Assembly: GCA_036985875.1 (NCBI GenBank)
Contig: BTQM01000003.1
Coordinates: 1 to 34,806, forward strand
Source of the DNA: Patescibacteria group bacterium
GTDB taxonomy: Bacteria > Patescibacteriota > Minisyncoccia > Phycocordibacterales > UBA1539
Reading direction: 5' to 3'
Length of the DNA: 34,806 bases
The notes beneath the pieces are model-generated. The model worked only from the letters and a program-made list of their open reading frames with translations, was not told the DNA's origin and made no database searches. The stretch's first letter is position 1; the number at the start of each line of letters is the position of its first letter. Of this stretch, positions 2,603 through 20,134 are shown one piece after another. The position numbers and the translations under genes are program-made.

Positions 2603-2611
2603 GGATTTGTC

Positions 2612-2696
2612 GTGTAACGTGTAATCTATAACTTATAATGTAAAACTTGGAACGCAATTTTGTAATACAGTTGTTACATTGTTATGAGTTATCGGT
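2612..2696. repeat. Heptamer inverted array element (copy 1)
   Basis: GTGTAAC GTGTAAT CTATAAC TTATAAT GTAAAAC TTGGAAC ... GTTACATT GTTATGA GTTATCG between pilMN and pilO. Confidence 0.8.
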
Positions 2697-4106
2697 TTAT
2701 TCATAAAGCGCTCCGGGGTTTTTTAATGAAAAGGAAATATTGAATGGGATGTCCTCTCCCAACTCCAAGTTGGTCAAGGGAAGATCGATGTCGGCAAGCA
2801 GCGGGGAGTTTTCCAAAGATCTTTTATAGGCATTTAATGTTTCGCGGTCTGATGCTATGCCAGTTATGTTCATTCGCGCCTCCGGCGACGGAAGAGAAAG
2901 AGAAGAGATTGCGATTCCCACGGTCGCCTCTTTTCTCAATTCTAGGACCACGCCCTGCCAGCGGGGAAGGGTTTGAGCCAATACGACGCCTTTTCTTATA
3001 AGCTCGTTAAATTTCGCCGCTCTTTTTTTCAAATCGGATGACTCTGTAGGGATGGAAACGGCAGACAGGGACTCAAGTTCTCCCAATGATCGCTCTTGCA
3101 GCGACACCATGAAAAGCCATGTTCCCACAAAGATTATTACTATAAAAAACACTAGGGCTACGGCAAGATTACTCCAAAACTCGCTGAATGCGATCGCCCT
3201 CTGGTGCTCGTATGCCTCTTCCGTGCCCACCGGCATAAGACTTATTATGTCATCTTCAGAGCGGGGAAGAAGTCCCCTTGCCGCCGCGCCGAGTGCAATG
3301 ATCCATTTGGAAGGGTGGCGCGTGACAGAGCTATGGTGAGAAAATACCTCCACCGCCTGGAGCTTCTCGAACTCCTTGGTTTGAGGCAGGACCCCTTTTT
3401 CCACTTCGTAGAATTTAAGTATTTTACTGATTTCCCGCGGCAGGCGCTTGTCGGAAACGTATTTTTGCGGCAAAAAGCGCATGAACGCAAGCGACCTTCC
3501 TTCTGCGACGGAAAGTGTTGTACCGGAGGTGGTGGAGTGCTGTACGAGAGTGCGACCCCCCTCGGGGATCTCTGCTACACGGAGAAAGCTCAAGGAATGG
3601 AATTCCACCGCTACTGTTTTTATGTTTACCTGACGCATGGCTTCCAGATATGCGTTTATCACCTCTTTCGGGGCGGCCGCGAGCGCAATCTCATTTTTCT
3701 CTTCCGCGGACATCTTTTCCCAGTCAAGGTATACGGTGTCCGGGTCTATGGGCAATTGAAATCCAACCGTTAGCTGCATGGTCTCTTCCAGTTTCTTGTC
3801 TCCGAGCGTCTTTGGAAAGGAGTAGGTGTGGAAGTAGATGGTATCCGAGGGGAGCGAGATTATGATGTATCGCAGAGCGCCAGTTTTCGCTAAAAGCTCT
3901 TTTAGCGAGATTACCAGCTTTGTAATGTCTTTAACACGTCCTTCTTGTATGACACCGGCGGGCAGGGAAATTTCTTCAAGCGCTTTTATTTTGACGGAGA
4001 AGTTTTTTTTGTCTTCCAACTTCAAAAAAGCAAGTCGTACATGCGTTTCGCTGATCTCCAGCCCGCCAATGGGCTCATCTTTGGTAAAAAGACTTAACAG
4101 ATTCAT
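2697..4106 (-). CDS. pilM: PilM-PilN fusion protein
   Basis: N-terminal GLEISETHVRL, LPAGVIQEGRV and YLDW PilM-like motifs; then ISLMP (PilN INLLP-like), TM and PilN-like domain (ITGIASDR..L..Y...LE.SP). Confidence 0.8.
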   Translation of the reverse strand: MNLLSLFTKDEPIGGLEISETHVRLAFLKLEDKKNFSVKIKALEEISLPAGVIQEGRVKDITKLVISLKELLAKTGALRYIIISLPSDTIYFHTYSFPKTLGDKKLEETMQLTVGFQLPIDPDTVYLDWEKMSAEEKNEIALAAAPKEVINAYLEAMRQVNIKTVAVEFHSLSFLRVAEIPEGGRTLVQHSTTSGTTLSVAEGRSLAFMRFLPQKYVSDKRLPREISKILKFYEVEKGVLPQTKEFEKLQAVEVFSHHSSVTRHPSKWIIALGAAARGLLPRSEDDIISLMPVGTEEAYEHQRAIAFSEFWSNLAVALVFFIVIIFVGTWLFMVSLQERSLGELESLSAVSIPTESSDLKKRAAKFNELIRKGVVLAQTLPRWQGVVLELRKEATVGIAISSLSLPSPEARMNITGIASDRETLNAYKRSLENSPLLADIDLPLTNLELGEDIPFNISFSLKNPGALYE

Positions 4107-4146
4107 TGTCCTTATTATATTACAGTTATAGCATATTGAAAAACCT

Positions 4147-4186
4147 CCCCAGTATCACAAATCTTGCAGATTTGTGATACCCCAGT
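4147..4186. repeat. Perfect 13-bp hairpin bracketed by CCCCAGT direct repeats
   Basis: GTATCACAAATCT-TGC-AGATTTGTGATAC at 4152-4180; CCCCAGT at 4147 and 4180. Confidence 0.7.
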
Positions 4187-4356
4187 CGGAAAGTAAATTT
4201 TCAACGGGGCATGGTTGGGCGAATATGCAGACAGGTCGCCAATAAAAGCAGTTCACCTCGCACTAATTCCTCGGCTTGGCAATCTGAAAAAATCCACCTC
4301 GTTTCGTTTTTCAGATCGCTCTCGCTCTACGTCGTTAATAACGTATAATAAACAAC

Positions 4357-6777
4357 ATGAGGTTGCGTGGGAAATTCACGTTGTTCATATTGATCCTTTT
4401 CACGACGATTATTGTCGTGCCTATTTATTTTTTCAATCAAGAGAAACAGCAATCCATCGATAATATCTTTGAGGCAGAAATGGAAGAAGTGAATTTTTTC
4501 AGCGAGAACATAGAACACCAACTTTCCCTTTATGCTGCCGATATTATCGTAATAGAAAACTTGCCGCCCGTTCAGGGGATCGTGAGGGCGCGCGAGGCGC
4601 CTGACAATATTGATCCTCTTGACGGCACCCCTTTGGAGCTTTGGAAACGCCGCCTTGAGCAGATCTTTGAAGGGTATTCCCTCTCCCGCTCGTTTTATCT
4701 CCAGATCCGGTATTTGGACGAGAAAGGGAAAGAGCTCGTGCGCGTTAATTCTACGCCGGAAGGGCCTTATATCGTGCCTCCGGAGGAACTTCAGGACAAA
4801 TCAGCACGCGGTTATTTCCGGGAAGCACTCAATATTCCACGAGGGCAAACCTATATTTCAGAATTGGATTTGAATATTGAACATGGTGAAATAGAAATTC
4901 CTTTTAAGCCGGTGATACGTTTTGCGAGGGTGGTGTATGGCGCGGAAGGCGAGGCGCGCGGAATGGTAATAATCAATGTTGCCGCAGACAATGTTTTTGG
5001 GTTCATCGAGACCCTTTCTCTTGGAGACGAGGAGGAGGATTTGTTTTTAATAGACCAAGACGGATATTTCCTGGTGTATCCGTCTAAACCGGAACTGGAG
5101 TTCAGCAGATTCGGCACCGAAGAAAGATCCCAACATTACCTTGAGCACCGAGAGCACATTTTAGCGGAGACCTTAACATCCCACCGGATTTCGGCGCATG
5201 ACCATACGGGCGAGAAAATTTTTGTCCATCGGGTTATTCGTTATAACCCCACTCGTCCCGAGCGCTTTTTTATTCTCGTTGAAGAGCTGGAGACGCGTGC
5301 GTTTCTGGCGCCGACTCAAAATCGTTTTCGGCAAAATCTTCTCTTCTTGCTTGCTATATTCACCGGCGCATTTTTTGCGTTCTATTTTGTTTCTATGACT
5401 CCACTGAGGGCAAGGATTTTGCGGAATCTGAAAGTAATAGAAAGAATCAAGAAGGGAGATTTTGAGGTGCGGATAAATGCAAAAGGAAGCGATGAGGTGG
5501 AAGAAATGGCGCGTGGCATTGATGAAATGGCGGAGAAACTTGAAGATTCGCAGCGTGAATTAACGGGGGCGAATCTTGTTCTTGACGCTCAATTAAAAGA
5601 GGCGGTTGAGAGAGGCAATATCCTTGAAGAAACGGGAGAAGCGATGCTGAACATTCTTGAAGACGCTCGCCTGTTTGAAAAGGATCTCAAAGAGGAGCGT
5701 GATCTGGTGGGGGCGATCATCTCTTCAATGGCGGAAGGTCTTTTGCTGGTTGATACAGGATACAGGATCATGCTCATGAACCCCGTGGCACAGCGGCTTT
5801 TGGGCGTTGGGGAGAAAAAGATAATTGGCAAGGACGTGTGGAGCGCGATCCAGATTTTCAAGGGTGACAAGAAGCTCTCACCGGAGGATTTGCCTATCGC
5901 CAAAATATTCGCGGAAGGTAAACCGGTAAAAATCGGTCTGGAAGAAAACATCTTTTTTGAAACTCCCTCGGGAAAAAGATTTCCAGCGGAGGTGCTTATG
6001 GCTCCGCTGTTGCGAAGAGGTGTTACTGCGATGGTGGTGATATTTCGCGATATCACCGAAAGTAAGGCGTTGGATGAATCAAAATCAAGTTTTATCTCAA
6101 CCGCCTCTCATCAGCTCCGTACCCCACTGGGTGTTATACGCTGGTACTCGGAGATGCTCTCAGATGAAGATGTCGGCCACTTGAACAAGAACCAGAAAGA
6201 TTTTGCTGAAAGAATACATCGTGCAACGATCCGAATGATCGAAACTATCAAACTCCTCCTGATGATGGCTAGAATGGAGAGCGGGGTAGAGGGGGAAGTA
6301 AAAAAAGAAACAGATGTCGCGAAGTTTACAAAGGAGATACTTGCGGGGCTTGAAGTGGAGGCATCCAAAAAATCTTTAACAATGAATTTTCACGCTGCAT
6401 CCGATCTGCCCAAGGCGGACATAGATAATTCTATGCTAGATCAGGCGATAACAAATCTCGTATCAAATTCCATTCATTATACTGACATCGGCGGCGTGAT
6501 CAACATTGATATATCCGTGTCCGATCCCGCGACACTTTTATTCAAGGTGGAAGATAACGGGATCGGTATTCCTCTCAATGCTCGCGAGAAACTGTTCCAA
6601 AAGTTTTTCCGGGCGGAGAATGCCGCTATAAAAATCCCGGATGGTTCGGGGTTGGGGCTTGCGGTGGTAAAATCCTTGGTTCTACATTGGGGAGGAAAGG
6701 TGTGGTTTGAGTCAAAAGAGAAGGAGGGAACCACATTCTATTTCACTATACCAATTGCACGCATTAACCGCGACTAA
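4357..6777 (+). CDS. Sensor histidine kinase (TM-Cache-like-TM-HAMP-PAS-HisKA-HATPase)
   Basis: Two TMs flanking ~290-aa extracellular domain, HAMP (DEVEEMA), PAS (SMAEGLLLVD...MNPVA), H-box SHQLRTPL, N-box NLVSNS, DNGIGI, GSGLGL. Confidence 0.93.
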   Translation: MRLRGKFTLFILILFTTIIVVPIYFFNQEKQQSIDNIFEAEMEEVNFFSENIEHQLSLYAADIIVIENLPPVQGIVRAREAPDNIDPLDGTPLELWKRRLEQIFEGYSLSRSFYLQIRYLDEKGKELVRVNSTPEGPYIVPPEELQDKSARGYFREALNIPRGQTYISELDLNIEHGEIEIPFKPVIRFARVVYGAEGEARGMVIINVAADNVFGFIETLSLGDEEEDLFLIDQDGYFLVYPSKPELEFSRFGTEERSQHYLEHREHILAETLTSHRISAHDHTGEKIFVHRVIRYNPTRPERFFILVEELETRAFLAPTQNRFRQNLLFLLAIFTGAFFAFYFVSMTPLRARILRNLKVIERIKKGDFEVRINAKGSDEVEEMARGIDEMAEKLEDSQRELTGANLVLDAQLKEAVERGNILEETGEAMLNILEDARLFEKDLKEERDLVGAIISSMAEGLLLVDTGYRIMLMNPVAQRLLGVGEKKIIGKDVWSAIQIFKGDKKLSPEDLPIAKIFAEGKPVKIGLEENIFFETPSGKRFPAEVLMAPLLRRGVTAMVVIFRDITESKALDESKSSFISTASHQLRTPLGVIRWYSEMLSDEDVGHLNKNQKDFAERIHRATIRMIETIKLLLMMARMESGVEGEVKKETDVAKFTKEILAGLEVEASKKSLTMNFHAASDLPKADIDNSMLDQAITNLVSNSIHYTDIGGVINIDISVSDPATLLFKVEDNGIGIPLNAREKLFQKFFRAENAAIKIPDGSGLGLAVVKSLVLHWGGKVWFESKEKEGTTFYFTIPIARINRD

Positions 6778-6825
6778 ATTACTGGTGTGTTGCGCACCAT
6801 GCCCCCATAAGGGTAGAATCTAAAT

Positions 6826-7224
6826 ATGAGTAAAGTTGCCAAAAAAGTACTTATCGTTGAAGACGATGAGAGCATCTCTCGCATCTACGATATTAAACTG
6901 AAAAAAGAGGGCGTGGAGACGCTCATTGTTGCCGATGGGGAAGTAGTGCTTGAAAAACTCCCAGAGTTCAAGCCCGACCTTATTCTGCTTGACCTCATGC
7001 TTCCCAAAAGAGATGGCTTTTGGGTTCTTGAACACATAAGAAAAAGTCCCGACTTTAAAGAGACGCCGGTGGTGGTGCTCTCCAACTTGGGGCAGGAGAG
7101 CGACAAAGAAAAGGCGGAAGCATTGGGTGTGGAAGATTATCTAGTGAAAGCCAATATTTCTATTCGCGAGGCGACAAGGAGGATAATGGGATATTTGAAT
7201 CATTCGGCTGCCAGCGGTAAATAG
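6826..7224 (+). CDS. Single-domain response regulator (receiver only)
   Basis: VLIVEDD, LILLDLMLP, VVVLSN, DYLVK; no output domain. Confidence 0.93.
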   Translation: MSKVAKKVLIVEDDESISRIYDIKLKKEGVETLIVADGEVVLEKLPEFKPDLILLDLMLPKRDGFWVLEHIRKSPDFKETPVVVLSNLGQESDKEKAEALGVEDYLVKANISIREATRRIMGYLNHSAASGK

Positions 7225-7247
7225 CGGGCAAGTCTGGACTTGCCCGC
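7224..7247 (+). terminator. GC-rich hairpin directly after receiver gene
   Basis: GCGGGCAAGTC-TG-GACTTGCCCGC; no U-tract, so function uncertain. Confidence 0.45.
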
Positions 7248-7256
7248 CGCGGGAAC

Positions 7257-7265
7257 TTATCCACA
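7257..7265 (+). promoter_or_regulatory. Consensus DnaA box upstream of major pilin
   Basis: TTATCCACA exact match. Confidence 0.55.
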
Positions 7266-7293
7266 GGCGGTCTCTGTCAAATAAAGTCGTGGT

Positions 7294-7302
7294 TGATATA
7301 AT
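7294..7302 (+). promoter_or_regulatory. Extended -10 element for pilin 1
   Basis: TGATATAAT (TGnTATAAT) 64 nt before the ATG. Confidence 0.55.
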
Positions 7303-7365
7303 AGGTTACGGTGGGAGGGTTTTATTGTTTGTTGGCTTGCTAAAAAATTTAAAATTTTAAAAACT

Positions 7366-8073
7366 ATGTTCATAGGACAAAACAAGAAAAAAGGATTCAC
7401 ATTACTAGAGCTTTTGATCGTTATCTCTATCATCGCCATTTTGGCGGTAATAGTCATTTTGGTATTAAATCCAGGCGAGACGCTCAAAAAAGCTCGGGAT
7501 GTGCAGAGAATGTCGGACATGGCGACTATGAAAACTGCTATCGCGCTTATTTTGACCTCAAGTACAACGCCGTATCTTTCAAGTGGAAACTATGACTGTT
7601 TGACGACAGGCACCAGTACAGCGAAGATCTGGTACAGTTCTGAGGTTGCTTCCCCGACATGTACTGCTGATTTACCGGAGGGTGCGGATGCGGATGGAAC
7701 ATATGCGACGACGGGCGCCGGTTGGTGTAGTGCGGGAGGTACTTCGGGCGCAAGTGATACTGACGGAACGGGATGGATACCGATCAAACTATCATGGCTT
7801 CCTGGCGGCTCGCCACTCTCCAATTTGCCACTTGATCCGATAAATGACATCATTGACAGTATTCCGAGCAGTACCGATAAAGTATATCGTTATACATGCC
7901 AGACGACCGCTGGCTCAGGTAAGCCAAGCACTGTATTTGAGATCAATACAATTTTAGAAAGTGAAGCGTTTACTGTCACTGATAATAAAATGACCAAGGA
8001 CGGGGGCGACAACGACAACTATTACGAAGTAGGTACCAATCTGAAACTTTTACCTACGGATACACAGTTTTAA
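7366..8073 (+). CDS. Type IV major pilin candidate 1
   Basis: Class III signal KKG|FTLLELLIVISIIAILA, then ARDVQRMSD helix. Confidence 0.92.
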   Translation: MFIGQNKKKGFTLLELLIVISIIAILAVIVILVLNPGETLKKARDVQRMSDMATMKTAIALILTSSTTPYLSSGNYDCLTTGTSTAKIWYSSEVASPTCTADLPEGADADGTYATTGAGWCSAGGTSGASDTDGTGWIPIKLSWLPGGSPLSNLPLDPINDIIDSIPSSTDKVYRYTCQTTAGSGKPSTVFEINTILESEAFTVTDNKMTKDGGDNDNYYEVGTNLKLLPTDTQF

Positions 8074-8078
8074 ACATC

Positions 8079-8182
8079 GTGTAACTCACACCTTGTAACG
8101 CGTAACCCGAAACTTGCAACACAAAATCCGCCGTAGGCGGATTTTGTGTTGCAAGTTATGAGGTATTGGTTATATGGTATAA
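8079..8182. repeat. Heptamer inverted array element (copy 2) with perfect 22-bp stem
   Basis: GTGTAAC TCACACC TTGTAAC GCGTAAC CCGAAAC TTGCAAC; stem 8111-8132/8136-8157; GTTGCAA GTTATGA GGTATTG GTTATAT GGTATAA. Confidence 0.85.
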
Positions 8183-8196
8183 TATCAACTGTGTTT

Positions 8197-8868
8197 ATGG
8201 TGGAAACTAACGAGAAAAAAGGATTCACACTACTAGAGCTTTTGATCGTGATCTCTATCATCGCCATTTTGGCGGTCATCATCATTTTGATATTAAATCC
8301 CGCTGAAACCTTGAGAAAAGCTCGGGACGTGCAAAGGATGTCTGACATGGCGACTATGAAAATCGCTATCGGGATCATCGTGACGGCGAGCTCAACACCA
8401 TGGCTTAGCGGTACGTCGGGAAACTCACTCTGTTATGGCGGAAGCGGCACGGACTCCATTTGGTACAGTCTTTCAAGTACCGATGGCGTCATTATAGACA
8501 CAACACTAGATGGTGGAACCGGCAGTATTCCTAACTCTGTGCAAGTTACCTCTACAAATCTCAATTTAACCGATGGAAACGGCTGGATACCGGTCAATTT
8601 CGGGTGGCTTCCGGGAAGGTCTCCCATCTCCAACCTTCCTGTTGATCCGATAAACACGATCGGTACTTTGAGTTCCGTGGACAACTACGATCTCGTGTAT
8701 CGCTACGTCTGCAACAGCACAGATACGACATTTGAGATCGATGCGGTATTAGAAAGTATTTCGTTTACATCTAACGACAACAAGATGGCAACTGATGGAG
8801 GAGATAATAGTAATTATTATGAAGTGGGTACGGCGTTGGACATACTGGGAACAGGCGTAAATTTCTAA
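8197..8868 (+). CDS. Type IV major pilin candidate 2 (paralog of pilin 1)
   Basis: ATG at 8197 (MVETNEKKG|FTLLE); N-terminus nearly identical to pilin 1. Confidence 0.92.
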   Translation: MVETNEKKGFTLLELLIVISIIAILAVIIILILNPAETLRKARDVQRMSDMATMKIAIGIIVTASSTPWLSGTSGNSLCYGGSGTDSIWYSLSSTDGVIIDTTLDGGTGSIPNSVQVTSTNLNLTDGNGWIPVNFGWLPGRSPISNLPVDPINTIGTLSSVDNYDLVYRYVCNSTDTTFEIDAVLESISFTSNDNKMATDGGDNSNYYEVGTALDILGTGVNF

Positions 8869-8897
8869 GGCGTATTGAATTTTTTTACGATGACAAT

Positions 8898-9491
8898 ATG
8901 AATTTCTTTCTCAATGTTGTCTTGCCGTGGTTGCCGGTGGTATTTTTTGCCGGTATTTTTTTGTATGTGGCCGTCCGCTACCTCTGGTATCCTAGGCGCA
9001 TCAGATATGTGCCGCTTATTGCCGGTGTCGTATCTTTCCGTATTTTTTACGCTATCTTTCTTTCTGGTACCCAATACTATGTGTGGCTACAGAATGAATT
9101 TACGAAACTTCTCCTGCCTCCGTATCAGCCGATCTCGTACTTCCTGTTCTATTCGTGGGGAAGGTTTTGGTTGAATGCAATGATAATACTTGGTGTGTCG
9201 CTTGTGTTCTGGCTTTTCCTGCGTTCGCTTGCGGTGTGGAAGAAAGATTCTTTTCGGAAGAGTGAGGCGGGACTGGGGCTCCTTATGGCGCTTATTGTTG
9301 GATGGCCTCATGTGGTCATATTCGTGCCCCTCTCTTTTGTTCTTGCGGCTATTATCTCTCTTGCCCGCCTTATCTTTTTTGGAAAAAGCTCCGTCACACT
9401 TGGTACCTCGTTTCTTCTTGCGGCGCTCATTCTTTTTGTGTGGGGAGACGGACTCATAGAATTGTTCAATCTGGGGGTTTTGAGGATATAA
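8898..9491 (+). CDS. Polytopic membrane protein resembling the prepilin peptidase (A24) membrane domain, degenerate
   Basis: 5-6 TMs; SEAGLGLLMALIVGW and VTLGTSFLLAA echo GDxKL...LGW and IPFGPFL; sits between pilins and pilB. Confidence 0.5.
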   Translation: MNFFLNVVLPWLPVVFFAGIFLYVAVRYLWYPRRIRYVPLIAGVVSFRIFYAIFLSGTQYYVWLQNEFTKLLLPPYQPISYFLFYSWGRFWLNAMIILGVSLVFWLFLRSLAVWKKDSFRKSEAGLGLLMALIVGWPHVVIFVPLSFVLAAIISLARLIFFGKSSVTLGTSFLLAALILFVWGDGLIELFNLGVLRI

Positions 9492-9492
9492 T

Positions 9493-9566
9493 CCACAACT
9501 TATAACGTAGAGCTTCGCCCCCGGCGAAGCTCTCTCGGGTTACACGTTACAAGTTATAAGTTATAA
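9493..9566. repeat. Heptamer inverted array element (copy 3)
   Basis: CCACAAC TTATAAC, hairpin AGAGCTTCGCC-CCC-GGCGAAGCTCT, GTTACAC GTTACAA GTTATAA GTTATAA, then pilB ATG. Confidence 0.85.
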
Positions 9567-9567
9567 T

Positions 9568-11286
9568 ATGCTTATGCATATAACTTCCGAAAGATTTCAA
9601 AAGATATTGCTTGATTCTGACATGGTGGATGAGCAAACATTCGCTGATGTACAAAAAGAGGCGCAGCGCTTGAGCCAAACGGTGGAGGACGTTTTGGTGG
9701 GGAGGAAAATAATCACCGAGAAATATTTGGCGGAACTTTTGGGGCCGTACTTTGATGTGCCGTTCGTAGACTTGGGGCATGAGAAAGTTCCTCACGACAC
9801 ACTAGAGCTTGTTTCCGAATCTTACGCTAAGTCTCATCGACTCGTGGTGTTCAAATGGGACGAGAGGAAGAGGATCGCGCATGTAGCGATGTATGACCCC
9901 TTAGACATGGAGACGATAGAGTTTCTGCGTGCCAAGCTCCGCGCATGGGTGGAGCCGTATCTTACGACCGATACAAGTCTCCGATTCGTTCTGCGGCAAT
10001 ACAAGCGCGAGATCGGAAAAGAGTTTAGTGAAATTATTTCAGAGAACGTTAAGAAATCCCTGACGCTTACAGGAGAACCGAACCTTGCAAAAGTTGCCGC
10101 GGCAGTGCCCATCATCACCATTCTGGACAGTATTTTTGAGCACGCAGCCGCTCTAAACGCCTCCGACATTCATTTTGAGCCGATGGAAAAAGAAGTTTTG
10201 ATCAGATACCGAATTGACGGGATATTGCACGAGATGCTTTCTCTCCCGAAAGCTATCGCCCCTATTTTGGTGGCGCGGATAAAAATCCTTGCCAATCTTC
10301 AGATAGACGAGCATCGCATCCCACAAGATGGCCGCTTTAGGTTTGAACTGCCCGATGGCGGCAAGATTGACGTTCGAGTCAACGTTATGCCGGTATTCCA
10401 CGGAGAGAAGGTGGAGGCGCGGCTTTTGAAAAGCGCCGCCCGCCCGCTTTCTTTAAGAGAACTGGGTCTCTCAAAAGACAGCGTCAAGATCATGATGTCG
10501 GAGATCAAAAAGCCGCACGGTATGATATTGGCCACGGGCCCCACGGGGCATGGAAAAACCACGACGCTCTATGCCATATTGCATATATTGAATCGTCCGG
10601 AGGTAAACATCACCACCATCGAAGATCCCATTGAATATCAAATTTCCCGCATTAATCAAACGCAAGTGAATGTGAAAGCGGGTATCACTTTTGCAAACGG
10701 ATTGAGGTCACTCTTGAGGCAGAACCCCGATATAATGATGATCGGGGAAATAAGAGACGCGGAAACGGTAGACATTGCGATCCATTCGGCCTTGACGGGG
10801 CACCTAGTGCTCTCGTCGCTCCACACCAATGATGCTCCCTCTGCCTTGCCGCGGCTTTTGGATATGGGAGCTCCCGCTTTCCTGCTTTCTTCCACGGTCA
10901 ATGTTGTGATCGCCCAGCGCCTTGTCCGCCGCATTTGCAACGCCTGCATTGAGTCGTATCGGATATCTCCAGAGATACAGCGGCTCATTAAAGCGCAGAT
11001 AAAGCTTGTTGGTGATGAACATATCAAAACGATTCCCACTACGCTTTTCAGAGGAAAGGGCTGTAAGATTTGTGGAGAGAGTGGTTTTTCCGGACAGATA
11101 GGCATTTTTGAGATATTGGAAGTGACGGACAAGATCAAGACGCTTGTTTTACGCCAGGCCACCGCTGGTGAGATCAGGAAAGTGGCTGTGGGCGAGGGGA
11201 TGCATACAATGTTTGAAGATGGTTTGCAAAAAGTGCAGCAAGGCATTACCACCATTGAAGAAGTCCTGCGGGTGGTAAGGGAGTGA
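9568..11286 (+). CDS. pilB: Type IV pilus assembly ATPase PilB/GspE
   Basis: ASDIHFEP, PQDGRF, Walker A GPTGHGKTT, TIEDPIEY, LRQNPDIMMIGEIRD, TGHLVLSSLHTN, tetra-Cys RICNAC/GCKIC. Confidence 0.96.
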   Translation: MLMHITSERFQKILLDSDMVDEQTFADVQKEAQRLSQTVEDVLVGRKIITEKYLAELLGPYFDVPFVDLGHEKVPHDTLELVSESYAKSHRLVVFKWDERKRIAHVAMYDPLDMETIEFLRAKLRAWVEPYLTTDTSLRFVLRQYKREIGKEFSEIISENVKKSLTLTGEPNLAKVAAAVPIITILDSIFEHAAALNASDIHFEPMEKEVLIRYRIDGILHEMLSLPKAIAPILVARIKILANLQIDEHRIPQDGRFRFELPDGGKIDVRVNVMPVFHGEKVEARLLKSAARPLSLRELGLSKDSVKIMMSEIKKPHGMILATGPTGHGKTTTLYAILHILNRPEVNITTIEDPIEYQISRINQTQVNVKAGITFANGLRSLLRQNPDIMMIGEIRDAETVDIAIHSALTGHLVLSSLHTNDAPSALPRLLDMGAPAFLLSSTVNVVIAQRLVRRICNACIESYRISPEIQRLIKAQIKLVGDEHIKTIPTTLFRGKGCKICGESGFSGQIGIFEILEVTDKIKTLVLRQATAGEIRKVAVGEGMHTMFEDGLQKVQQGITTIEEVLRVVRE

Positions 11287-11288
11287 TC

Positions 11289-11360
11289 TTGTAACATACA
11301 GGTTGCAGAGGGTTATATATTATAAAGATTGAGTTACAAGTTATTGGTTATATGTTATTT
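11289..11360. repeat. Heptamer array element (copy 4, degenerate)
   Basis: TTGTAAC just after the pilB stop; GTTACAA GTTATTG GTTATAT GTTATTT overlapping the pilC start. Confidence 0.7.
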
Positions 11361-12560: not shown

Positions 12561-12574
12561 ATAAGTATCGCGTG

Positions 12575-12660
12575 GTTTGTCTTTTGCGGCAAAAGGCAAA
12601 CAAGAGAGTGCTCTACGCGTACCCGCCATAAGTAATTATGTTATCAGTTATAAGTTATAA
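12575..12660. repeat. Hairpin plus right-arm heptamers (copy 5)
   Basis: GTTTGTCTTTTGC-G-GCAAAAGGCAAAC; GTTATCA GTTATAA GTTATAA encoding the leader MLSVISYK. Confidence 0.7.
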
Positions 12661-13099
12661 GCGGGGCATTACTTTTTTGGAGATTCTTCTTGTGGTAGCG
12701 ATACTTTCCATCCTAGTTTCCATAGGAAGTGCTTCTTATCGGAATTACATAAAGAGCGTTGAACTTGACGGCGTGACGAAGGGCATTATTTTTGATCTTC
12801 GGCAAGCGCGCGCCAAAGCGATGAGCGGCGAAGAGAGGAGTCGTTGGGGGGTGCATCTTGTCAATGGCACCGATGACTATTACGAGTTGTTTCTCACGGA
12901 AAGCGATTACGCGAGCGCCACGGTGACGGCGACGACGTTTCTTTCCGGCGGGATAGCGTTTTCCACGCCCGGCGAGGGAGTCACAAAAGATGTCGTTTTT
13001 TTCAAGATAAGCGGCACCACTACGTCTGAGACTGTGGGGCTAACGTTTGAAGGGGAGACGAGAACGATTACCGTAACAAGCGAAGGCGTGGTGTATTAG
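12638..13099 (+). CDS. Minor pilin, FimU/GspH-like
   Basis: KRG|ITFLEILLVVAIL; DLRQARAKAM. Confidence 0.88.
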   Translation: MLSVISYKRGITFLEILLVVAILSILVSIGSASYRNYIKSVELDGVTKGIIFDLRQARAKAMSGEERSRWGVHLVNGTDDYYELFLTESDYASATVTATTFLSGGIAFSTPGEGVTKDVVFFKISGTTTSETVGLTFEGETRTITVTSEGVVY

Positions 13100-13101
13100 G
13101 A

Positions 13102-13216
13102 ATCTTGTAACATAGAACTTGTAACTTATGATACACAACCGACAACCAACAAAATTTATTTGCCGCGAGCCTGCCAATAGTCAGGCAGGTTATACGTTAC
13201 AAGCTACACGTTATAA
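13102..13216. repeat. Heptamer inverted array element (copy 6)
   Basis: TTGTAAC ATAGAAC TTGTAAC TTATGAT ACACAAC CGACAAC ... CCTGCC-AATAGTCA-GGCAGG ... GTTATAC GTTACAA GCTACAC GTTATAA. Confidence 0.88.
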
Positions 13217-13850
13217 GAGAAGCAGGGGTCAAATACTAGTTGAGACTTTGCTGGCAATCTTTATCGCGGCGCTTGTTGTGCCGCTTGTGGCGCAAATGTT
13301 GTTTACAGGCCTTGAAGGAAGCCGCATTGTCGGACAGCGTGATGGTGCATCGGAGCTTGGGCGGGAAGTGTTTGAAGCGGTAAAGAGCACCGCTTTTGAG
13401 AGATGGCTTGATGTGTACCGGCCGCCGGATGGCACCGGCGATCCTGTTACAAGCAAAGGCGTTTCCAATCACTACTACCCCTCCTTGCAAAACGGTAAAT
13501 GGACGATACTTTCGGGGGACGAGACGGTTGTGGTAGGCGACATTTCCTACACGCGCTACTTCACCATTGACAACGTAAGCCGCGATCCTGCGACTCGCGA
13601 CATTGAGTCTTCTTACACGCTCGCGAACGACGACCCGTCCACGCAAAAGATCACAGTGACGGTAAGCCGGGGGAATAACGAATCCCTCTCGTGGAGCGAA
13701 TACCTCCTGCGGTGGAGAAACAAGATTTGTTATCAGACCGACTGGAGCGGAACCGGCTCCGGCACCACCATCTGCCCCACCACTTTATATGAGAGCGAAA
13801 CCGACACAGATTTTTCCGTCTCCGGCAGTCTAAAAATCACTCCGCTTTAA
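13128..13850 (+). CDS. Minor pilin, PilV/GspI-like, with 34-aa repeat-encoded leader
   Basis: SRG|QILVETLLAIFIAA; YTRYFTI..V.RD and KITVTVS motifs. Confidence 0.85.
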   Translation: MIHNRQPTKFICREPANSQAGYTLQATRYKRSRGQILVETLLAIFIAALVVPLVAQMLFTGLEGSRIVGQRDGASELGREVFEAVKSTAFERWLDVYRPPDGTGDPVTSKGVSNHYYPSLQNGKWTILSGDETVVVGDISYTRYFTIDNVSRDPATRDIESSYTLANDDPSTQKITVTVSRGNNESLSWSEYLLRWRNKICYQTDWSGTGSGTTICPTTLYESETDTDFSVSGSLKITPL

Positions 13851-13995
13851 TTTGCTTTTTATCTTCAACACCCTTTGTTAAAGGATGTTGAACCCGTACA
13901 ATAATACATGAGGAGACAATATGCTAAAGCCTAAATAACCGCTACTTTCAGTACAAAGTGATCCTGAAAAACGATGATTAATTTATCTGAAAAAG

Positions 13996-16900
13996 ATGCC
14001 TAAATATCTACACAAAATATTTATATTTATAATTATCTCAGCCTGGGTATTTAGTGGATACCCTCAGATTTTTAATTTTCCGCCGGAAATTAAGGTGGCC
14101 GCAGCCGCAAGCACATTTAGAACTACCACCTATGAACTTGAAGGTACGGAATTTTCCGGAACCACTTACACCCTCACACTTAACAACAATCTTGCAGCCA
14201 ACTACTTTGCGATGATTGCCGGCGCAAACAGTCAAACAGCTTCTCGCGGGCCTGACGATGATGGTGTGCGCGTTACGGACGATCCTTTTGGTACGGGTTC
14301 ATTCCCCGGTTTGGTGAGCGCAAATCAGATCGAACTTACACGCTCTTCATCTGTCAATAATTGGATAGGATCGGTTACCATCGTTGAATGTTTGGGGGAT
14401 TGCACCACTTCCGGATTTGAATTAAGGGAGGTGAGGGAGGTGGTTTTTTCAGATGGAACAGCAAATACATTACAGACGGTAACTGACACCCTCGCGCAAG
14501 CTCACACATCCCAGACCGTTCCTTTTGGCGGTTTTTTCGGCGGAGGCATGCAGACAACCGGCACAGGATTAAGCAATAATGAGTATGCGGTTACGTTAGG
14601 CGTCCGTATTTACAAAAGTGGGGCTAACCAGATCACGCTTGAGCGTTATGGCGCTCAATCCAGAATCCCCCGAGCGGGTACCATAACCGTATATATTGTT
14701 GAATGGGGGAGTGGGTGGACCGTGCAGAATGTCAATGTAACGGGAACCAATTCAGGAAATGGAATTAACGCAACCGGAGAGTACAATACCGCTTCTATCA
14801 CATCGGTGACGAGAGCCAATACGTGGGTTTGGGCTGCCGGTCATGCAAGAGATGACGGTATCGGAGATGGCGCTTTTGGTCAGGTTGCCACACTTGGCGA
14901 CGGTGTTAGTCAAAATATTAACGAAACTTCCGTTGCGGTGGGAGCTGAAGGCGGACAGATAAGTCCGGGACGGGATTTTCAGGTTTATGTGATGAGTCAT
15001 CCCAGTTTGGCGGTGGATTACCGGTTTAAAGCAGACGGAAATACGGGAAGTTCTTCGGGGTATCAGGAATTAACGTTTGCCGTTGATAGCGCCAATGGTT
15101 CAGAGACTTATGACAACACATCAGGCACCGTTCGTTATACTGAAGGTTACCGAATCCCAATTATCTACACCTCTTCGGCCGGAGGTGGTCAGGCGTATTC
15201 TAGGCCGGTTTGGTCGCCTCGCATAAATGCAGACACGACTCTTCTTTATTGGCGGGCGTACGCGGGACAGCCATTCGCCGCTTGGGCGCAGATAGCTGAC
15301 TTCGCGAATATTACCTTTACCGCCGACGATGTCACCGTCAGCACCAGCGGCACCCAGACTGCCAGTCTAGATATCCCCAGCACGAACCAGTATGTGGGGG
15401 GCACTTTTGCGATCACAGAAAACACAAGTTCCAGAAATGTCACCGGCATCACCATTACGGAGAACGGCACGGTGAACGCTTCAACAAATCTTGACAACAT
15501 TAAACTGCAGTACGATCTTGATACTACAGCGCCCTACGACTGCGCCTCAGAGTCGTGGGCGTCCGGCGATAGCCAATTTGGCGCGACCGATACCGACGGG
15601 TTCAGCGCCGCCAATGGAACATCAGCTTTTACCGGCACGGCAGCGATCTCCACCACCCAGACGATGTGCGTCTATGCGGTGCTGGATGTTCTCTCCGGAG
15701 CCGCCAACAATGAAACGGTTGAGATTGAGATCAGTAATCCTTCAACAGAGGTAACCGTAAGCGCGGGTGCGGTGGGACCGGGTACGGCCGTTGCGCTTTC
15801 CGGGACAACTAATTTAAGTACTAATATCTCCCCTAACACCACACAGTCGTTTCAAGACGGAGTTTCACCCACCGGCAGCTATGCCGGAACAAGAGATACT
15901 TATATTCATGACAATCTGCCCACCACGAACAACGGCTCTGCGACCGAGATCCTCGTTGATGGTAGTGCGTTGGAGCAGTACGGAACCCTTCTCAAGTGGG
16001 ATATCACCGACATTCCCGCGGGGCAGATAGTTCAATCAGCCGTCATTACGCTCACCAGCTTTAATGCTACGAGTGACACCTACTCAGTATATGAAATGCT
16101 GCGCAATTGGGTGGAATCTGAAGCCACGTGGGAGATATATGCCACCGGCAGCAGTTGGCAAACAAACGGCGGAACGGGTGCGCTTGATAGCGGAACTACG
16201 GTCTTTGGCACGATCACCGGAGGAACCGGAGAGAGAACCATCACCTTGAACGCATCCGGAGTGGCTTTGGTTCAGGGATGGGTGAATAATCCGAGCTCTA
16301 ATTACGGGTTCTTTATTGAGAATTATCTTGCGACTGACGGCGCGGATTTTCGCTCCAGAGAATATGCCACCGCATCCTCGCGGCCTAAGCTTACCGTAAC
16401 GTACGGTTCTTCCAGTATCGTTGAGAGCAGAGTTTCCCAGTCAAGCGATGACGCCGAAGAGCAGAATCCTCCGAGCGGCAGTATGTATCTGACGAGTAGC
16501 GATCTTGAATTGATATCGGATGGGTCCACTGATCAGGAAGTCGGCATGCGGTTCCAGAATATAGTCGTACCCCAGGGAGCGATCATTACGAACGCCTATG
16601 TTCAGTTTACCGTTGACGAACTTGATTCGGGTACAACCAACCTTACCATTTACGGTGAGGATATTGATGTGGCGCCAACGTTCACGACAACCGCCGGCAA
16701 CATTACGAACAGGACGAAGACGAGCGCTTCGGTTGCGTGGAACAGTGTGCCGGCATGGACGACGGTTGGCGATGCGGGCACTGACCAACGGACGCCGGAT
16801 ATTACTTCCATTATTCAAGAAATCGTCAACAGGGTGGGGTGGGCAAGCGGCAATTCTCTCGTCGTTATCATTGACGGTACCGGAGAGAGAACCGCGGAAT

Positions 16901-19473
16901 CATACGATGGGGTGCCGACATCCGCACCACTTTTGCGTATAGAGTATGCCGATATCCCCGACGATGTCACCGTCAGCACCAGCGGCACCCAGACTGCCAG
17001 TCTAGATATCCCCAGCACGAACCAGTATGTGGGGGGCACTTTTGCGATCACAGAAAACACAAGTTCCAGAAATGTCACCGGCATCACCATTACGGAGAAC
17101 GGCACGGTGAACGCTTCAACAAATCTTGACAACATTAAACTGCAGTACGATCTTGATACTACAGCGCCCTACGACTGCGCCTCAGAGTCGTGGGCGTCCG
17201 GCGATAGCCAATTTGGCGCGACCGATACCGACGGGTTCAGCGCCGCCAATGGAACATCAGCTTTTACCGGCACGGCAGCGATCTCCACCACCCAGACGAT
17301 GTGCGTCTATGCGGTGCTGGATGTTCTCTCCGGAGCCGCCAACAATGAAACGGTTGAGATTGAGATCAGTAATCCTTCAACAGAGGTAACCGTAAGCGCG
17401 GGTGCGGTGGGACCGGGTACGGCCGTTGCGCTTTCCGGGACAACTAATTTAAGTACTAATATCTCCCCTAACACCACACAGTCGTTTCAAGACGGAGTTT
17501 CACCCACCGGCAGCTATGCCGGAACAAGAGATACTTATATTCATGACAATCTGCCCACCACGAACAACGGCTCTGCGACCGAGATCCTCGTTGATGGTAG
17601 TGCGTTGGAGCAGTACGGAACCCTTCTCAAGTGGGATATCACCGACATTCCCGCGGGGCAGATAGTTCAATCAGCCGTCATTACGCTCACCAGCTTTAAT
17701 GCTACGAGTGACACCTACTCAGTATATGAAATGCTGCGCAATTGGGTGGAATCTGAAGCCACGTGGGAGATATATGCCACCGGCAGCAGTTGGCAAACAA
17801 ACGGCGGAACGGGTGCGCTTGATAGCGGAACTACGGTCTTTGGCACGATCACCGGAGGAACCGGAGAGAGAACCATCACCTTGAACGCATCCGGAGTGGC
17901 TTTGGTTCAGGGATGGGTGAATAATCCGAGCTCTAATTACGGGTTCTTTATTGAGAATTATCTTGCGACTGACGGCGCGGATTTTCGCTCCAGAGAATAT
18001 GCCACCGCATCCTCGCGGCCTAAGCTTACCGTAACGTACGGTTCTTCCAGTATCGTTGAGAGCAGAGTTTCCCAGTCAAGCGATGACGCCGAAGAGCAGA
18101 ATCCTCCGAGCGGCAGTATGTATCTGACGAGTAGCGATCTTGAATTGATATCGGATGGGTCCACTGATCAGGAAGTCGGCATGCGGTTCCAGAATATAGT
18201 CGTACCCCAGGGAGCGATCATTACGAACGCCTATGTTCAGTTTACCGTTGACGAACTTGATTCGGGTACAACCAACCTTACCATTTACGGTGAGGATATT
18301 GATGTGGCGCCAACGTTCACGACAACCGCCGGCAACATTACGAACAGGACGAAGACGAGCGCTTCGGTTGCGTGGAACAGTGTGCCGGCATGGACGACGG
18401 TTGGCGATGCGGGCACTGACCAACGGACGCCGGATATTACTTCCATTATTCAAGAAATCGTCAACAGGGTGGGGTGGGCAAGCGGCAATTCTCTCGTCGT
18501 TATCATTGACGGTACCGGAGAGAGAACCGCGGAATCATACGATGGGGTGCCGACATCCGCACCACTTTTGCGTATAGAGTACATCAACCCGGGTCTGACC
18601 CAGATCCATTACCGTTGGCGCAATGATGACGGCAATGAGGCAAGCGCCACCTGGGCCGCCCTTGAAGATACTGCTTCTGCCACGATCAATAACACCTTGG
18701 TTAGACTCCGGTTTGAGGTTTCCAATGAAGGGTCAGCTAATTCGACTTCCACCGCTTACCGACTGGAGGTTTCAGGCCCTGATCCCTCCTCCTGCGCTGC
18801 TGCCTCCTATGTGCGGGTGGACTCAAGCAGCGACTGGGATATGGCCACCTCAACCTATTTTGCGGATGGGGATCCCACCACCAATGTCTCGGGCGGACTG
18901 ACGGATGAGAATACCACTTTCCTCGCCGGTGAAATGAAAGAGGCCAATGACATCACTTCAGGCATCGTTTTGACTACCACTGAATTTATCGAGATCGAGT
19001 ATGCGTTCAAGTCAACACCAAGCGCCACGAGTGGTGCCCTCTACTGCTTCCGGCTGACCAATGCCGGCACAGCCATCGATATCTATTCCGCCTACGCCAG
19101 AACCACCTTGGGTGGGTATAAGGCCGTCGGGACGCTCGTCTCCGTGGTGTTGGATACCGGCGTTTCAGATGGCGCGGCTTATAATTCCATTTTGTGGAAG
19201 GGCATAATGCCGGCCGGCACAAAGGTGCGGCTGCAGTTGGCTACTTCCAATAGTTCTTCCGGGCCATGGAGTTACATTAGCGGACCAACCTGCTCGTCGG
19301 GCGATTATTATGAGCCGTTGCCCGACCAGCCGGATGAGATCGGTTGCTTCACTTCTCATAATAACAAGCGGTATTTTAAGTATAGGGTAGAGTTGTGCTC
19401 GTCAACTGACTGTATAACTCCCGGTGGTAACACCCCGATCGTCCAAGACGTCGTCGTGAGTTGGTCACCGTGA
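13996..19473 (+). CDS. Large secreted beta-rich adhesin-like protein (DNRLRE/carbohydrate-binding-like modules), possible PilY1 functional analogue
   Basis: 1825-aa ORF, N-terminal signal peptide, Thr/Ser/Gly-rich; DTYI...LLKWD...W.E.EATW...RPKLTVTY and SSDDAEE...GMRF...APLLRIEY modules; inside the minor pilin operon. Confidence 0.8.
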   Translation: MPKYLHKIFIFIIISAWVFSGYPQIFNFPPEIKVAAAASTFRTTTYELEGTEFSGTTYTLTLNNNLAANYFAMIAGANSQTASRGPDDDGVRVTDDPFGTGSFPGLVSANQIELTRSSSVNNWIGSVTIVECLGDCTTSGFELREVREVVFSDGTANTLQTVTDTLAQAHTSQTVPFGGFFGGGMQTTGTGLSNNEYAVTLGVRIYKSGANQITLERYGAQSRIPRAGTITVYIVEWGSGWTVQNVNVTGTNSGNGINATGEYNTASITSVTRANTWVWAAGHARDDGIGDGAFGQVATLGDGVSQNINETSVAVGAEGGQISPGRDFQVYVMSHPSLAVDYRFKADGNTGSSSGYQELTFAVDSANGSETYDNTSGTVRYTEGYRIPIIYTSSAGGGQAYSRPVWSPRINADTTLLYWRAYAGQPFAAWAQIADFANITFTADDVTVSTSGTQTASLDIPSTNQYVGGTFAITENTSSRNVTGITITENGTVNASTNLDNIKLQYDLDTTAPYDCASESWASGDSQFGATDTDGFSAANGTSAFTGTAAISTTQTMCVYAVLDVLSGAANNETVEIEISNPSTEVTVSAGAVGPGTAVALSGTTNLSTNISPNTTQSFQDGVSPTGSYAGTRDTYIHDNLPTTNNGSATEILVDGSALEQYGTLLKWDITDIPAGQIVQSAVITLTSFNATSDTYSVYEMLRNWVESEATWEIYATGSSWQTNGGTGALDSGTTVFGTITGGTGERTITLNASGVALVQGWVNNPSSNYGFFIENYLATDGADFRSREYATASSRPKLTVTYGSSSIVESRVSQSSDDAEEQNPPSGSMYLTSSDLELISDGSTDQEVGMRFQNIVVPQGAIITNAYVQFTVDELDSGTTNLTIYGEDIDVAPTFTTTAGNITNRTKTSASVAWNSVPAWTTVGDAGTDQRTPDITSIIQEIVNRVGWASGNSLVVIIDGTGERTAESYDGVPTSAPLLRIEYADIPDDVTVSTSGTQTASLDIPSTNQYVGGTFAITENTSSRNVTGITITENGTVNASTNLDNIKLQYDLDTTAPYDCASESWASGDSQFGATDTDGFSAANGTSAFTGTAAISTTQTMCVYAVLDVLSGAANNETVEIEISNPSTEVTVSAGAVGPGTAVALSGTTNLSTNISPNTTQSFQDGVSPTGSYAGTRDTYIHDNLPTTNNGSATEILVDGSALEQYGTLLKWDITDIPAGQIVQSAVITLTSFNATSDTYSVYEMLRNWVESEATWEIYATGSSWQTNGGTGALDSGTTVFGTITGGTGERTITLNASGVALVQGWVNNPSSNYGFFIENYLATDGADFRSREYATASSRPKLTVTYGSSSIVESRVSQSSDDAEEQNPPSGSMYLTSSDLELISDGSTDQEVGMRFQNIVVPQGAIITNAYVQFTVDELDSGTTNLTIYGEDIDVAPTFTTTAGNITNRTKTSASVAWNSVPAWTTVGDAGTDQRTPDITSIIQEIVNRVGWASGNSLVVIIDGTGERTAESYDGVPTSAPLLRIEYINPGLTQIHYRWRNDDGNEASATWAALEDTASATINNTLVRLRFEVSNEGSANSTSTAYRLEVSGPDPSSCAAASYVRVDSSSDWDMATSTYFADGDPTTNVSGGLTDENTTFLAGEMKEANDITSGIVLTTTEFIEIEYAFKSTPSATSGALYCFRLTNAGTAIDIYSAYARTTLGGYKAVGTLVSVVLDTGVSDGAAYNSILWKGIMPAGTKVRLQLATSNSSSGPWSYISGPTCSSGDYYEPLPDQPDEIGCFTSHNNKRYFKYRVELCSSTDCITPGGNTPIVQDVVVSWSP
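15323..18581 (+). repeat. Intragenic tandem duplication: 15323-16946 and 16958-18581 (1624 bp each, period 1635 bp = 545 aa)
   Basis: Identical protein text and identical alternative-frame ORFs offset by exactly 1635. Confidence 0.95.
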
Positions 19474-19474
19474 G

Positions 19475-19639
19475 ATCTTGTAACGTAGAACTCGTAACTT
19501 GAAACGTATAACTTATAACCTGTAACTTGTAACTTATGATACACAACCGACAACCAACAAAATTTATTTGCCACAAGCCTGCCGATAGGCAGGTAGGTTA
19601 TATGTTACGAGTTACGAGTTATAAGATTGGGCGTTACAA
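19475..19639. repeat. Heptamer inverted array element (copy 7, longest)
   Basis: 11 left units TTGTAAC GTAGAAC TCGTAAC TTGAAAC GTATAAC TTATAAC CTGTAAC TTGTAAC TTATGAT ACACAAC CGACAAC; CCTGCC-GATA-GGCAGG; GTTATAT GTTACGA GTTACGA GTTATAA ... GTTACAA. Confidence 0.9.
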
Positions 19640-20132: not shown

Positions 20133-20134
20133 TA

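Follow-up and report, generated by a model that had tools for sequence, protein, structure and literature searches.

Heptanucleotides form the commonest class of long repeats in many prokaryote genomes, and an origin by slippage has been proposed for them (Mrázek 2007, as summarised in part of PMC4679880). TAACTGA heptamers are found as direct repeats in the intergenic DNA of marine Beggiatoaceae, Cyanobacteria and Bacteroidetes, and the sections of that study drawn on here count 169 direct-repeat sets and one inverted ('indirect') set in the Beggiatoaceae genome (MacGregor 2015, PMC4679880). In Nostoc, heptamer arrays lie near promoters and start codons, and their deletion altered reporter output, according to the portion of the preprint drawn on here (bioRxiv 10.1101/2022.06.06.494920). 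The subject of this text is a family of heptad-periodic palindromic elements in a Patescibacteria genome. The window analysed is the whole of contig BTQM01000003.1 (34,806 nucleotides; GenBank assembly GCA_036985875.1), designated C3 in a genome assembly of 699 kb on 55 contigs, with 46.8% G+C and an estimated completeness of 93.8%. An earlier reading of the window, made from its sequence alone (the sequence-only reading), had reported seven inverted arrays of the form (nnnnAAC)n-hairpin-(GTTnnnn)n at the gene junctions of a type IV pilus locus.

The pattern is present at all seven reported sites, and these seven arrays are local members of a small palindromic intergenic family that extends across the genome. 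A period scan for AAC and GTT of the kind proposed, run over the full 699 kb, recovers 17 exact period-7 runs of at least three AAC triplets and 20 of GTT, far above the counts obtained at periods 4-6 and 8-13 (1-5 for AAC and 0-7 for GTT). Other periods, other triplets and the reversed sequence served as controls for chance; in a scan with a tandem position weight matrix, 38 arrays scored at least 18 versus none in the reversed sequence, and 47 scored at least 15 versus eight. The sequence-only reading took AAC and GTT to be all that is conserved, but the unit has a fuller consensus, GTTAYAR. In 55 units taken from runs of at least four, A fills position 4 in 42 and position 6 in 41, and position 5 has C in 31 and T in 23; GTTACAA is seen 13 times and GTTATAA eight, and the units are not identical to one another. 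Like other intergenic heptanucleotide repeats, the arrays consist of three or more tandem 7-nucleotide (nt) copies in excess of chance, nearly all of them lie between genes, and they favour positions ahead of start codons. The repeat family is real and non-random, and of a known general type; it is best read as a form, in Patescibacteria, of the intergenic heptanucleotide repeats known from Cyanobacteria, Beggiatoaceae and Bacteroidetes. Neither its arrangement nor its phylum was found described: our literature searches returned no account of the GTTAYAR unit or of such arrays in Patescibacteria, although the supplementary tables of PMC4679880 may list other heptamers.

The anatomy of the elements is regular in its order and variable in its parts. 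The order AAC-array, centre, GTT-array holds in 12 of 12 complete elements, and the reverse order in none. Because this arrangement is symmetric, the arm adjoining the 3' end of a gene reads YTRTAAC and the arm adjoining a 5' end reads GTTAYAR, in the sense of that gene, in tandem, divergent (C11, C36, C28) and convergent (C21) contexts alike. At the window sites the left arm begins 5-10 nt past a stop codon and the right arm reaches or enters the next start codon, as had been claimed, and by our count about 15 GTT-type arms across the genome contain a start codon or end at most 14 nt from one. A strong hairpin (z -3.6 or lower) occupies 9 of the 12 centres; several centres consist of an A-run, CCGCC, a loop, GGCGG and a T-run, and A- and T-tracts flank some of them, for example at 8121-8147. 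The arms are independent tracts, separated by a gap whose length modulo 7 is not fixed. Among 34 outer and inner units the consensus form occurs in 17 versus 11, a difference not decisive for outer conservation of the terminal-inverted-repeat kind. Arms preceding starts and arms following stops do not differ at position 5 (C/T 32/40 vs 27/31, p = 0.86). Some arms lie directly upstream of σ70-like -35/-10 pairs (tuf, nusA, C28). The right arm as a promoter in its own right was tried and rejected: only 9539-9567 scores 10/12 in the scan, and the arms of a second genome introduced below, G041, have by our reading no usefully spaced -10-like hexamer.

Pfam confirms the type IV pilus locus at 2063-20626, which holds PilM/N, a histidine kinase, a receiver-only response regulator, N-methyl pilins, PilB, PilC and a protein of 1825 amino acids (aa). 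An element stands at 7 of its 13 junctions versus 20 of 713 elsewhere in the genome (odds ratio 40, Fisher p = 6e-8), so the association that led the sequence-only reading to propose a dedicated pilus system is borne out as an enrichment. The same elements flank housekeeping, rRNA, tRNA and type IV secretion system (T4SS)-like genes, and their apparent absence from housekeeping genes is a property of the window, where no array scoring at least 15 lies beyond 19624, and not of the genome: 12 of the 47 arrays are in the window and 35 are spread over 17 other contigs, at some 20-26 loci. The neighbours there include fusA/tuf, ribonucleotide reductase, nusA, the CCA-adding enzyme, ileS/recO, tatD, gyrA, ftsK, ruvC/yebC, mreC/PBP2 and yidC/jag, together with the T4SS-like genes VirB4/TraG, PrgI and a coupling protein; one array lies 76 nt upstream of 23S rRNA and another 12 nt upstream of a tRNA. 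These contexts, and the ribosomal-protein operons of G041, rule out a system dedicated to pili. No Rfam family reaches the gathering score in the window, and 19 further loci gave rRNA and tRNA only. Two side observations belong here. The response regulators beside the two histidine kinases (6826-7224, 132 aa; 24651-25061, 136 aa) are both receiver-only, with no DNA-binding domain. The 23S rRNA match on C18 (8506-11943) spans 3438 nt against a model of 2925 positions and therefore holds about 500 nt of insertions or introns, and its processing stem joins sequences some 10-60 nt upstream to the beginning of the 23S-5S spacer.

Element by element, with window coordinates, arrays given on the plus strand and hairpins unstranded, the seven sites read as follows. 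Element 1 opens with an AAC-type array of six units (2612-2653, score 37.8); its flanking genes are on the minus strand, in whose sense the array is a GTT-type arm lying 10 nt ahead of the start of a 179-aa open reading frame (ORF). A weak central stem (2661-2678, -3.8 kcal/mol) is followed by a GTT-type array of three exact units (2681-2697) that abuts the stop of the minus-strand PilM/N gene. Element 2 has a post-stop AAC-type array of six units (8079-8120, score 41.5) 6 nt past the stop of the pilin ORF 7366-8073, a perfect 12-bp hairpin with A-tract and T-tract that resembles a bidirectional terminator (8121-8147, -17.0 kcal/mol, z -6.6), and a pre-start GTT-type array of five units that ends in TATAAT (8148-8182); the likely pilin start, judged by its N_methyl motif, is about 14 nt farther downstream. 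Element 3 pairs a weak post-stop AAC-type array of three units (9486-9506, score 17.1) with a GC-rich hairpin (9509-9533, -19.1 kcal/mol, z -4.5) and a pre-start GTT-type array of four units abutting the PilB start (9539-9566, score 40.1), an arm that can also be read as GTTACA-N17-TATAAT.

Elements 4 and 5 depart from the plan, and a left array at every site, as first described, is not what is found. At element 4 (reported at 11289) there is a lone CTTGTAAC unit (11288-11295), 1 nt past the PilB stop and inside a local stem (11284-11315), followed by a pre-start GTT-type array of four units (11333-11360, score 29.3) that contains the PilC start codon at 11352. Element 5 (reported at 12575) consists of a strong hairpin past the PilC stop (12565-12622; -24.1 kcal/mol for 12561-12640) and a right arm only, the latter a GTT-type array of three units (12640-12660, score 25.1) within the prepilin leader peptide of ORF 12638-13099. 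Element 6 has a post-stop AAC-type array of six units (13105-13146, score 29.0), a centre (13147-13188) with a short hairpin at 13169-13186 and a core in common with element 7, and a GTT-type array of four units (13189-13216, score 32.9) inside the 5' end of ORF 13128-13850. Element 7 carries the longest arm, a post-stop AAC-type array of 11 units (19478-19554, score 75.1) 5 nt past the stop of the 1825-aa ORF, then a centre (19555-19596) with a hairpin at 19577-19594 (-13.9 kcal/mol, z -3.6) and a GTT-type array of four units to 19624 with an outlying GTTACAAG at 19633 (19597-19639, score 35.8), within which sits ATG 19602, opening a prepilin-like leader. The PilC start and two prepilin leaders are thus made of array sequence.

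Around these elements, at 13128-13216 and 19536-19624, both pilin-like ORFs can start at an ATG inside the common core, and the codon of element 6 aligned to ATG 19602 is ACG; the true starts and leader lengths of both are uncertain. The 1825-aa ORF itself (13996-19473) holds a direct repeat at an offset of 1635 nt, with 77% identity over 14800-16400, and ORFs and hairpin matches are duplicated at that same offset. In contigs of one DNA run, depth is doubled over 16958-18581 and there is no cover at about 15342-16675; the assembly may be collapsed or mis-joined in this ORF.

Elements 6 and 7 (13102 and 19475 in the original report) also document change. The central hairpins had been described as differing between copies, which is true of most, since the centres in this genome are largely unrelated to one another; these two share a core identical at almost every aligned column, the only such pair. 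The left arm of element 7 is the longer by exactly 35 nt, equal to five heptads, so that copy number changes here in 7-nt steps, and the proteins downstream are merely 41% identical over 92 residues. A common core despite divergent downstream proteins, together with the 35-nt step, implies that the element was copied or converted independently of its neighbours and that arrays change in length by entire units. Slippage-type gain and loss of whole units, and not a structural need, is the most likely source of the 7-nt period. Arrays have entered coding sequence twice: in fmt (C1 37992-38026), 13 residues encoded by five near-perfect units stand in place of a variable helix, with the length unchanged relative to five orthologues, and in ligA (C35 4053-4080) four units lie in the linker. 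A metagenome scan with PilB for relatives kept 80 loci at only 36-46% identity, no close strain among them. A search for sequencing runs that contain this DNA listed no RNA run, and the contigs of the one DNA run have no indels or joints at arrays, which is a weak test since contigs drop rare variants. Of the features of a miniature inverted-repeat transposable element (MITE), no target-site duplication was recognised; near-identical copies exist in G041, and in the window's genome the one pair that shares a core.

The family is patchily distributed, occurring in 1 of 40 same-order relatives, yet in several unrelated families of the phylum. Among 40 relatives (three of the same family and 37 of the same order), a three-unit pattern with at most one mismatch occurs in G026 alone, and there once; the same pattern gives 14 matches in the window's genome and the control pattern none. 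G026 has a heptad family of its own, on A4T/ATTTT units, in inverted arrays with well-conserved arms that also flank pilB. It further carries CCTANNG and CTAYAAC arrays, and in the former every variable triplet at a fixed position is a stop codon. In species-representative genomes from many phyla, a scan located the pattern at more than 120 loci. Of 80 that were examined, 17 have the inverted order GTT then AAC and two have AAC then GTT, both of these in Patescibacteria. No universal gene polarity emerged from those 80: with the arrays oriented as GTT-type, the downstream gene shares the strand in 25 and lies on the other one in 10, the upstream gene is split 18 vs 16, and the rest were ambiguous. 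Three Patescibacteria genomes reached through these loci are rich in matches at up to one mismatch, namely G041 with 99 (5 for the control), G042 with 35 (2) and G043 with 18 (0). In a sample of 401 genomes of the window's phylum, 38 have a match and eight have at least ten; G041 and G042 turn up again in this sample with unchanged counts and coordinates, and all four of its genomes from family f61 scored. Others, for example G184, G142, G061, G089, G173 and G416, match not GTTAYAR but the reversed control (RAYATTG units), at 9-28 places each, so the phylum has further heptad families.

G041 was examined in more detail. Its contig C7 carries 16 elements within 40 kb, each a short CAAG/CTTG stem set between about 4 + 4 heptads; they stand between the cistrons of the S12-S7-EF-G, S10 and spc operons and at further housekeeping junctions. 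In an analysis of 23 elements from four regions, oriented by gene direction, the start codon follows the last heptad by 3-6 nt in 22, and in most alignment rows the upstream TAA stop belongs to the conserved 5' end. The arms are biased: those before starts are of the GTTACAA type (position 5 C 75, T 15), and those after stops are the complement of the GTTATAA type (C 36, T 61; p = 7e-11), a bias that by inspection is independent of the orientation of the centre. Covariation is uninformative here, the copies being too alike, and only two pairs per fold are changed on both sides.

Several genes of the window's genome bear on how such elements might be read or spread. It encodes one RNase III and one cold-shock-domain (CSD) protein, the latter best matched by the CspE/CspA antiterminator models, below their cut-offs; no Rho RNA-binding domain was found in the 93.8% that the assembly is estimated to cover. 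Its one tyrosine recombinase is best matched by XerD, XerC and XerA. A lone Y1_Tnp ORF (RAYT-like) on C40, at about 470-1110 by our reading and in a region of about 380-1200, has on either side a palindrome of its own, about 25 nt long and without relation to the heptads; the two may form a REP/RAYT pair. A RAYT/REP link to the heptad arrays was rejected, the flanks of the Y1 gene being that different palindrome, with no heptad arrays. Over 616-618 ORFs of at least 100 aa, with start codons crudely called, Shine-Dalgarno-like 4-mers precede only 74 of 618 and TATAAT peaks at -13/-12 from the start codon, which suggests that leaderless or Shine-Dalgarno-less translation is widespread in this genome. 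As a separate observation, the 9-mer TTATCCACA, which we take to be the DnaA-box consensus, occurs 29 times against about five expected, at least 20 copies being intergenic; it often lies 25-45 nt upstream of a -10-like hexamer, and six copies stand beside heptad arrays (examples are window 7257 and 22076, C9 3162, C11 18778, C18 7135 and C36 1771). It could be a promoter-associated site for DnaA or another factor.

Altogether, the reading we prefer, at a little under even odds (a probability of about 0.45), is that of a cis-acting boundary element on the transcript, in which a hairpin with extendable arms brackets the stop codon of one gene and the start codon of the next. From the observed anatomy, distribution, polarity, lack of pilus specificity and change by whole units, we infer a series of functional steps. 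The element would be co-transcribed with its neighbours and act in cis at gene boundaries. Its GC hairpin would serve as a transcript boundary or stabiliser in a genome where Rho was not found, and the two arms could extend the stem, so that its base would hold the stop of the upstream gene and the start of the next. That start has no Shine-Dalgarno sequence, and the stem might couple or gate translation of the gene that follows, while the extended stem might offer a double-stranded target for RNase III. This takes up one option of the sequence-only reading, mRNA stems that set subunit stoichiometry, which suits the geometry of stop and start; the covariation of arms by which it was to be checked is not there, an arm pairing with its own partner at -5.40 and with foreign arms at -5.35 kcal/mol per heptad (permutation p = 0.44, n = 12).

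That null result is one of several that weigh against a transcript boundary element. A scan for hairpins followed by a T-run flags none of the element hairpins as terminators, the canonical U-tract not following them. The sense strand is the more stable one in just three of eight tandem-context elements, by our reading, and in 22 of the 23 G041 elements the sense RNA has the weaker predicted fold (-20.8 vs -27.5 kcal/mol for the antisense; -11.2 vs -19.6 kcal/mol for the consensus folds), because the arm bias follows gene direction; this speaks against selection for a stable stem in the sense strand. Where elements lie upstream of promoters, a tRNA or 23S rRNA, translation cannot be what they serve, and the arms do not form a 23S processing stem either: other sequences make the pairing of the 23S flanks, and the array is situated farther upstream. 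Arrays also occur inside two coding regions, fmt and ligA, and the near-identity of the 23 G041 copies over about 75 nt, non-heptad centre included, suits copy-and-paste spread no less than function.

The most serious alternative, which we consider unlikely, is a selfish or neutral dispersed repeat: a REP/MITE-like palindrome that enters spacers by copy-and-paste or gene conversion, with arms that slip and a host that tolerates it. The patchy distribution just described fits such a repeat, as do the 23 alike copies in G041, the core that elements 6 and 7 keep upstream of proteins with 41% identity over 92 aa, the invasion of fmt at unchanged length, the separate heptad family with conserved arms in G026, and the colonisation of different gene sets, the pilus locus in one genome and ribosomal-protein operons in the other. 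It is harder to reconcile with the mostly unrelated centres of the window's genome, with the failure to recognise any target-site duplication, and with the lack of a linked transposase, the single Y1 gene being flanked by different hairpins. In G041, moreover, the arm asymmetry tracks gene direction and the distance from the last heptad to the start codon is kept at 3-6 nt, both of which suggest constraint.

Arrays of binding sites are an improbable alternative to the boundary element. A protein, one heptad per subunit, would coat the arms as RNA or DNA and thereby control the hairpin, termination or initiation; candidates are a CSD protein, S1 and a ribbon-helix-helix (RHH)-type repressor like the ω protein of plasmid pSM19035, whose family has heptad sites. 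A GTT triplet fixed at 7-nt spacing in an otherwise degenerate unit, and arms that are independent, with neither a phase relation across the hairpin nor arm-to-arm covariation, would be natural in such a system. The genome has its one CSD protein, best matched by antiterminator models though under their cut-offs, and S1, Csp or CsrA has been proposed for the TAACTGA repeats in the part of the literature drawn on here (MacGregor 2015, PMC4679880). No cognate protein was identified or found positionally linked, however; relatives carry other heptads, so that each lineage would require a different reader, and 7 bp is not the helical repeat of duplex DNA.

A broader proposal extends the boundary element to a mobile stop-start cassette, and we regard it as quite improbable. 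Here a heptad-armed palindrome would replace Shine-Dalgarno operon punctuation in several Patescibacteria lineages, supplying the upstream TAA and placing the ATG 3-6 nt past the last heptad; its biased arms would let sense transcription pass and terminate antisense transcription without Rho, and either a conserved single-strand-binding factor or the ribosome itself would read its heptads. The antisense half of this can stand by itself, as one-way terminators whose antisense RNA forms a long G·U hairpin followed by a short U-run, the sense RNA with A·C mismatches being read through, and which protect operons in a Rho-less cell. The stronger antisense fold of 22 of the 23 G041 elements favours this, along with the 22 pairs of the consensus antisense hairpin, followed by GTTTTG in most alignment rows, and the failure to find a Rho RNA-binding domain in the window's genome. 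The U-run is short, though, the window's genome has no arm asymmetry, and the Rho result is for that genome alone; we rate such terminators as highly improbable.

Two further explanations can be dealt with briefly. A phase-variation switch, in which array slippage alters a promoter or leader length and toggles pilin expression, has in its favour 7-nt repeats upstream of surface-protein genes, two copies 35 nt apart in length and arrays that enter prepilin leaders, but non-identical units make slippage inefficient, most elements flank housekeeping genes and the contigs of one run hold no length variants (a weak point, as contigs drop rare ones), which leaves it with very little credibility. Integron-attC-like single-strand recombination sites that exchange pilus gene cassettes, the option listed first in the sequence-only reading, have in their favour the AAC...GTT ends beside stop codons, the imperfect palindrome and the core common to elements 6 and 7 upstream of divergent pilin-like genes, but are largely refuted by a sole tyrosine recombinase that is Xer-like (121.3 bits against a cut-off of 265 for the integron integrase model TIGR02249; 72 vs 435 for NF011946), by arms of 3-11 units where a single R box pair belongs, and by divergent and convergent contexts, rRNA and tRNA genes and positions inside ribosomal-protein operons, which are not those of co-oriented promoterless cassettes; there is no Rfam match either, though we are aware of no attC model in Rfam.

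Patescibacteria have tiny genomes and their gene expression is largely unstudied. A direction-aware element set exactly between stop and start codons, at pilus loci here and in ribosomal-protein operons in another lineage, would be a testable handle on transcript termination and translation start in cells of this kind, Shine-Dalgarno sequences being rare and Rho not having been found here. Heptad arrays also matter in practice: they break short-read assemblies, can be mistaken for attC sites or CRISPR-like arrays, and distort start-codon calls, several annotated pilin leader peptides here being partly array sequence.

Set beside known systems, the elements have partial counterparts in each. 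REP/BIME, ERIC and the Neisseria Correia elements are imperfect intergenic palindromes of 50-150 bp, co-transcribed and dispersed by copy-and-paste, whose hairpins affect termination, mRNA stability or RNase III processing; to our knowledge none has heptad-periodic arms, and no RAYT or transposase link of the REP/BIME kind was found for the elements of the window's genome. Like attC sites, the elements are imperfect palindromes that start past a stop codon, with a left ...AAC and a right GTT...; unlike them, with their one R/L box pair and their need for IntI, they have arrays of 3-11 units, no IntI was found in the genome, and there is no cassette-array context. Long simple sequence repeats and cyanobacterial heptamers are, in the accounts drawn on here, mostly perfect and direct, with many motifs per genome, whereas one dominant motif family with a fixed polarity around hairpins characterises the present arrays. 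The nearest likeness is to the TAACTGA repeats, as far as the consulted sections of their description extend (PMC4679880). Both are tandem 7-nt units, in two to six or more copies per set, in intergenic DNA; both lie mostly a few nucleotides upstream of start codons that have no Shine-Dalgarno sequence; both flank unrelated genes, ribosomal-protein genes included, have a patchy phylogeny and occasionally enter ORFs; and a translational role has been proposed for both. What sets the present family apart from TAACTGA is its heptad, GTTAYAR, its phylum, the degeneracy of its units and their organisation as inverted arrays around a hairpin.

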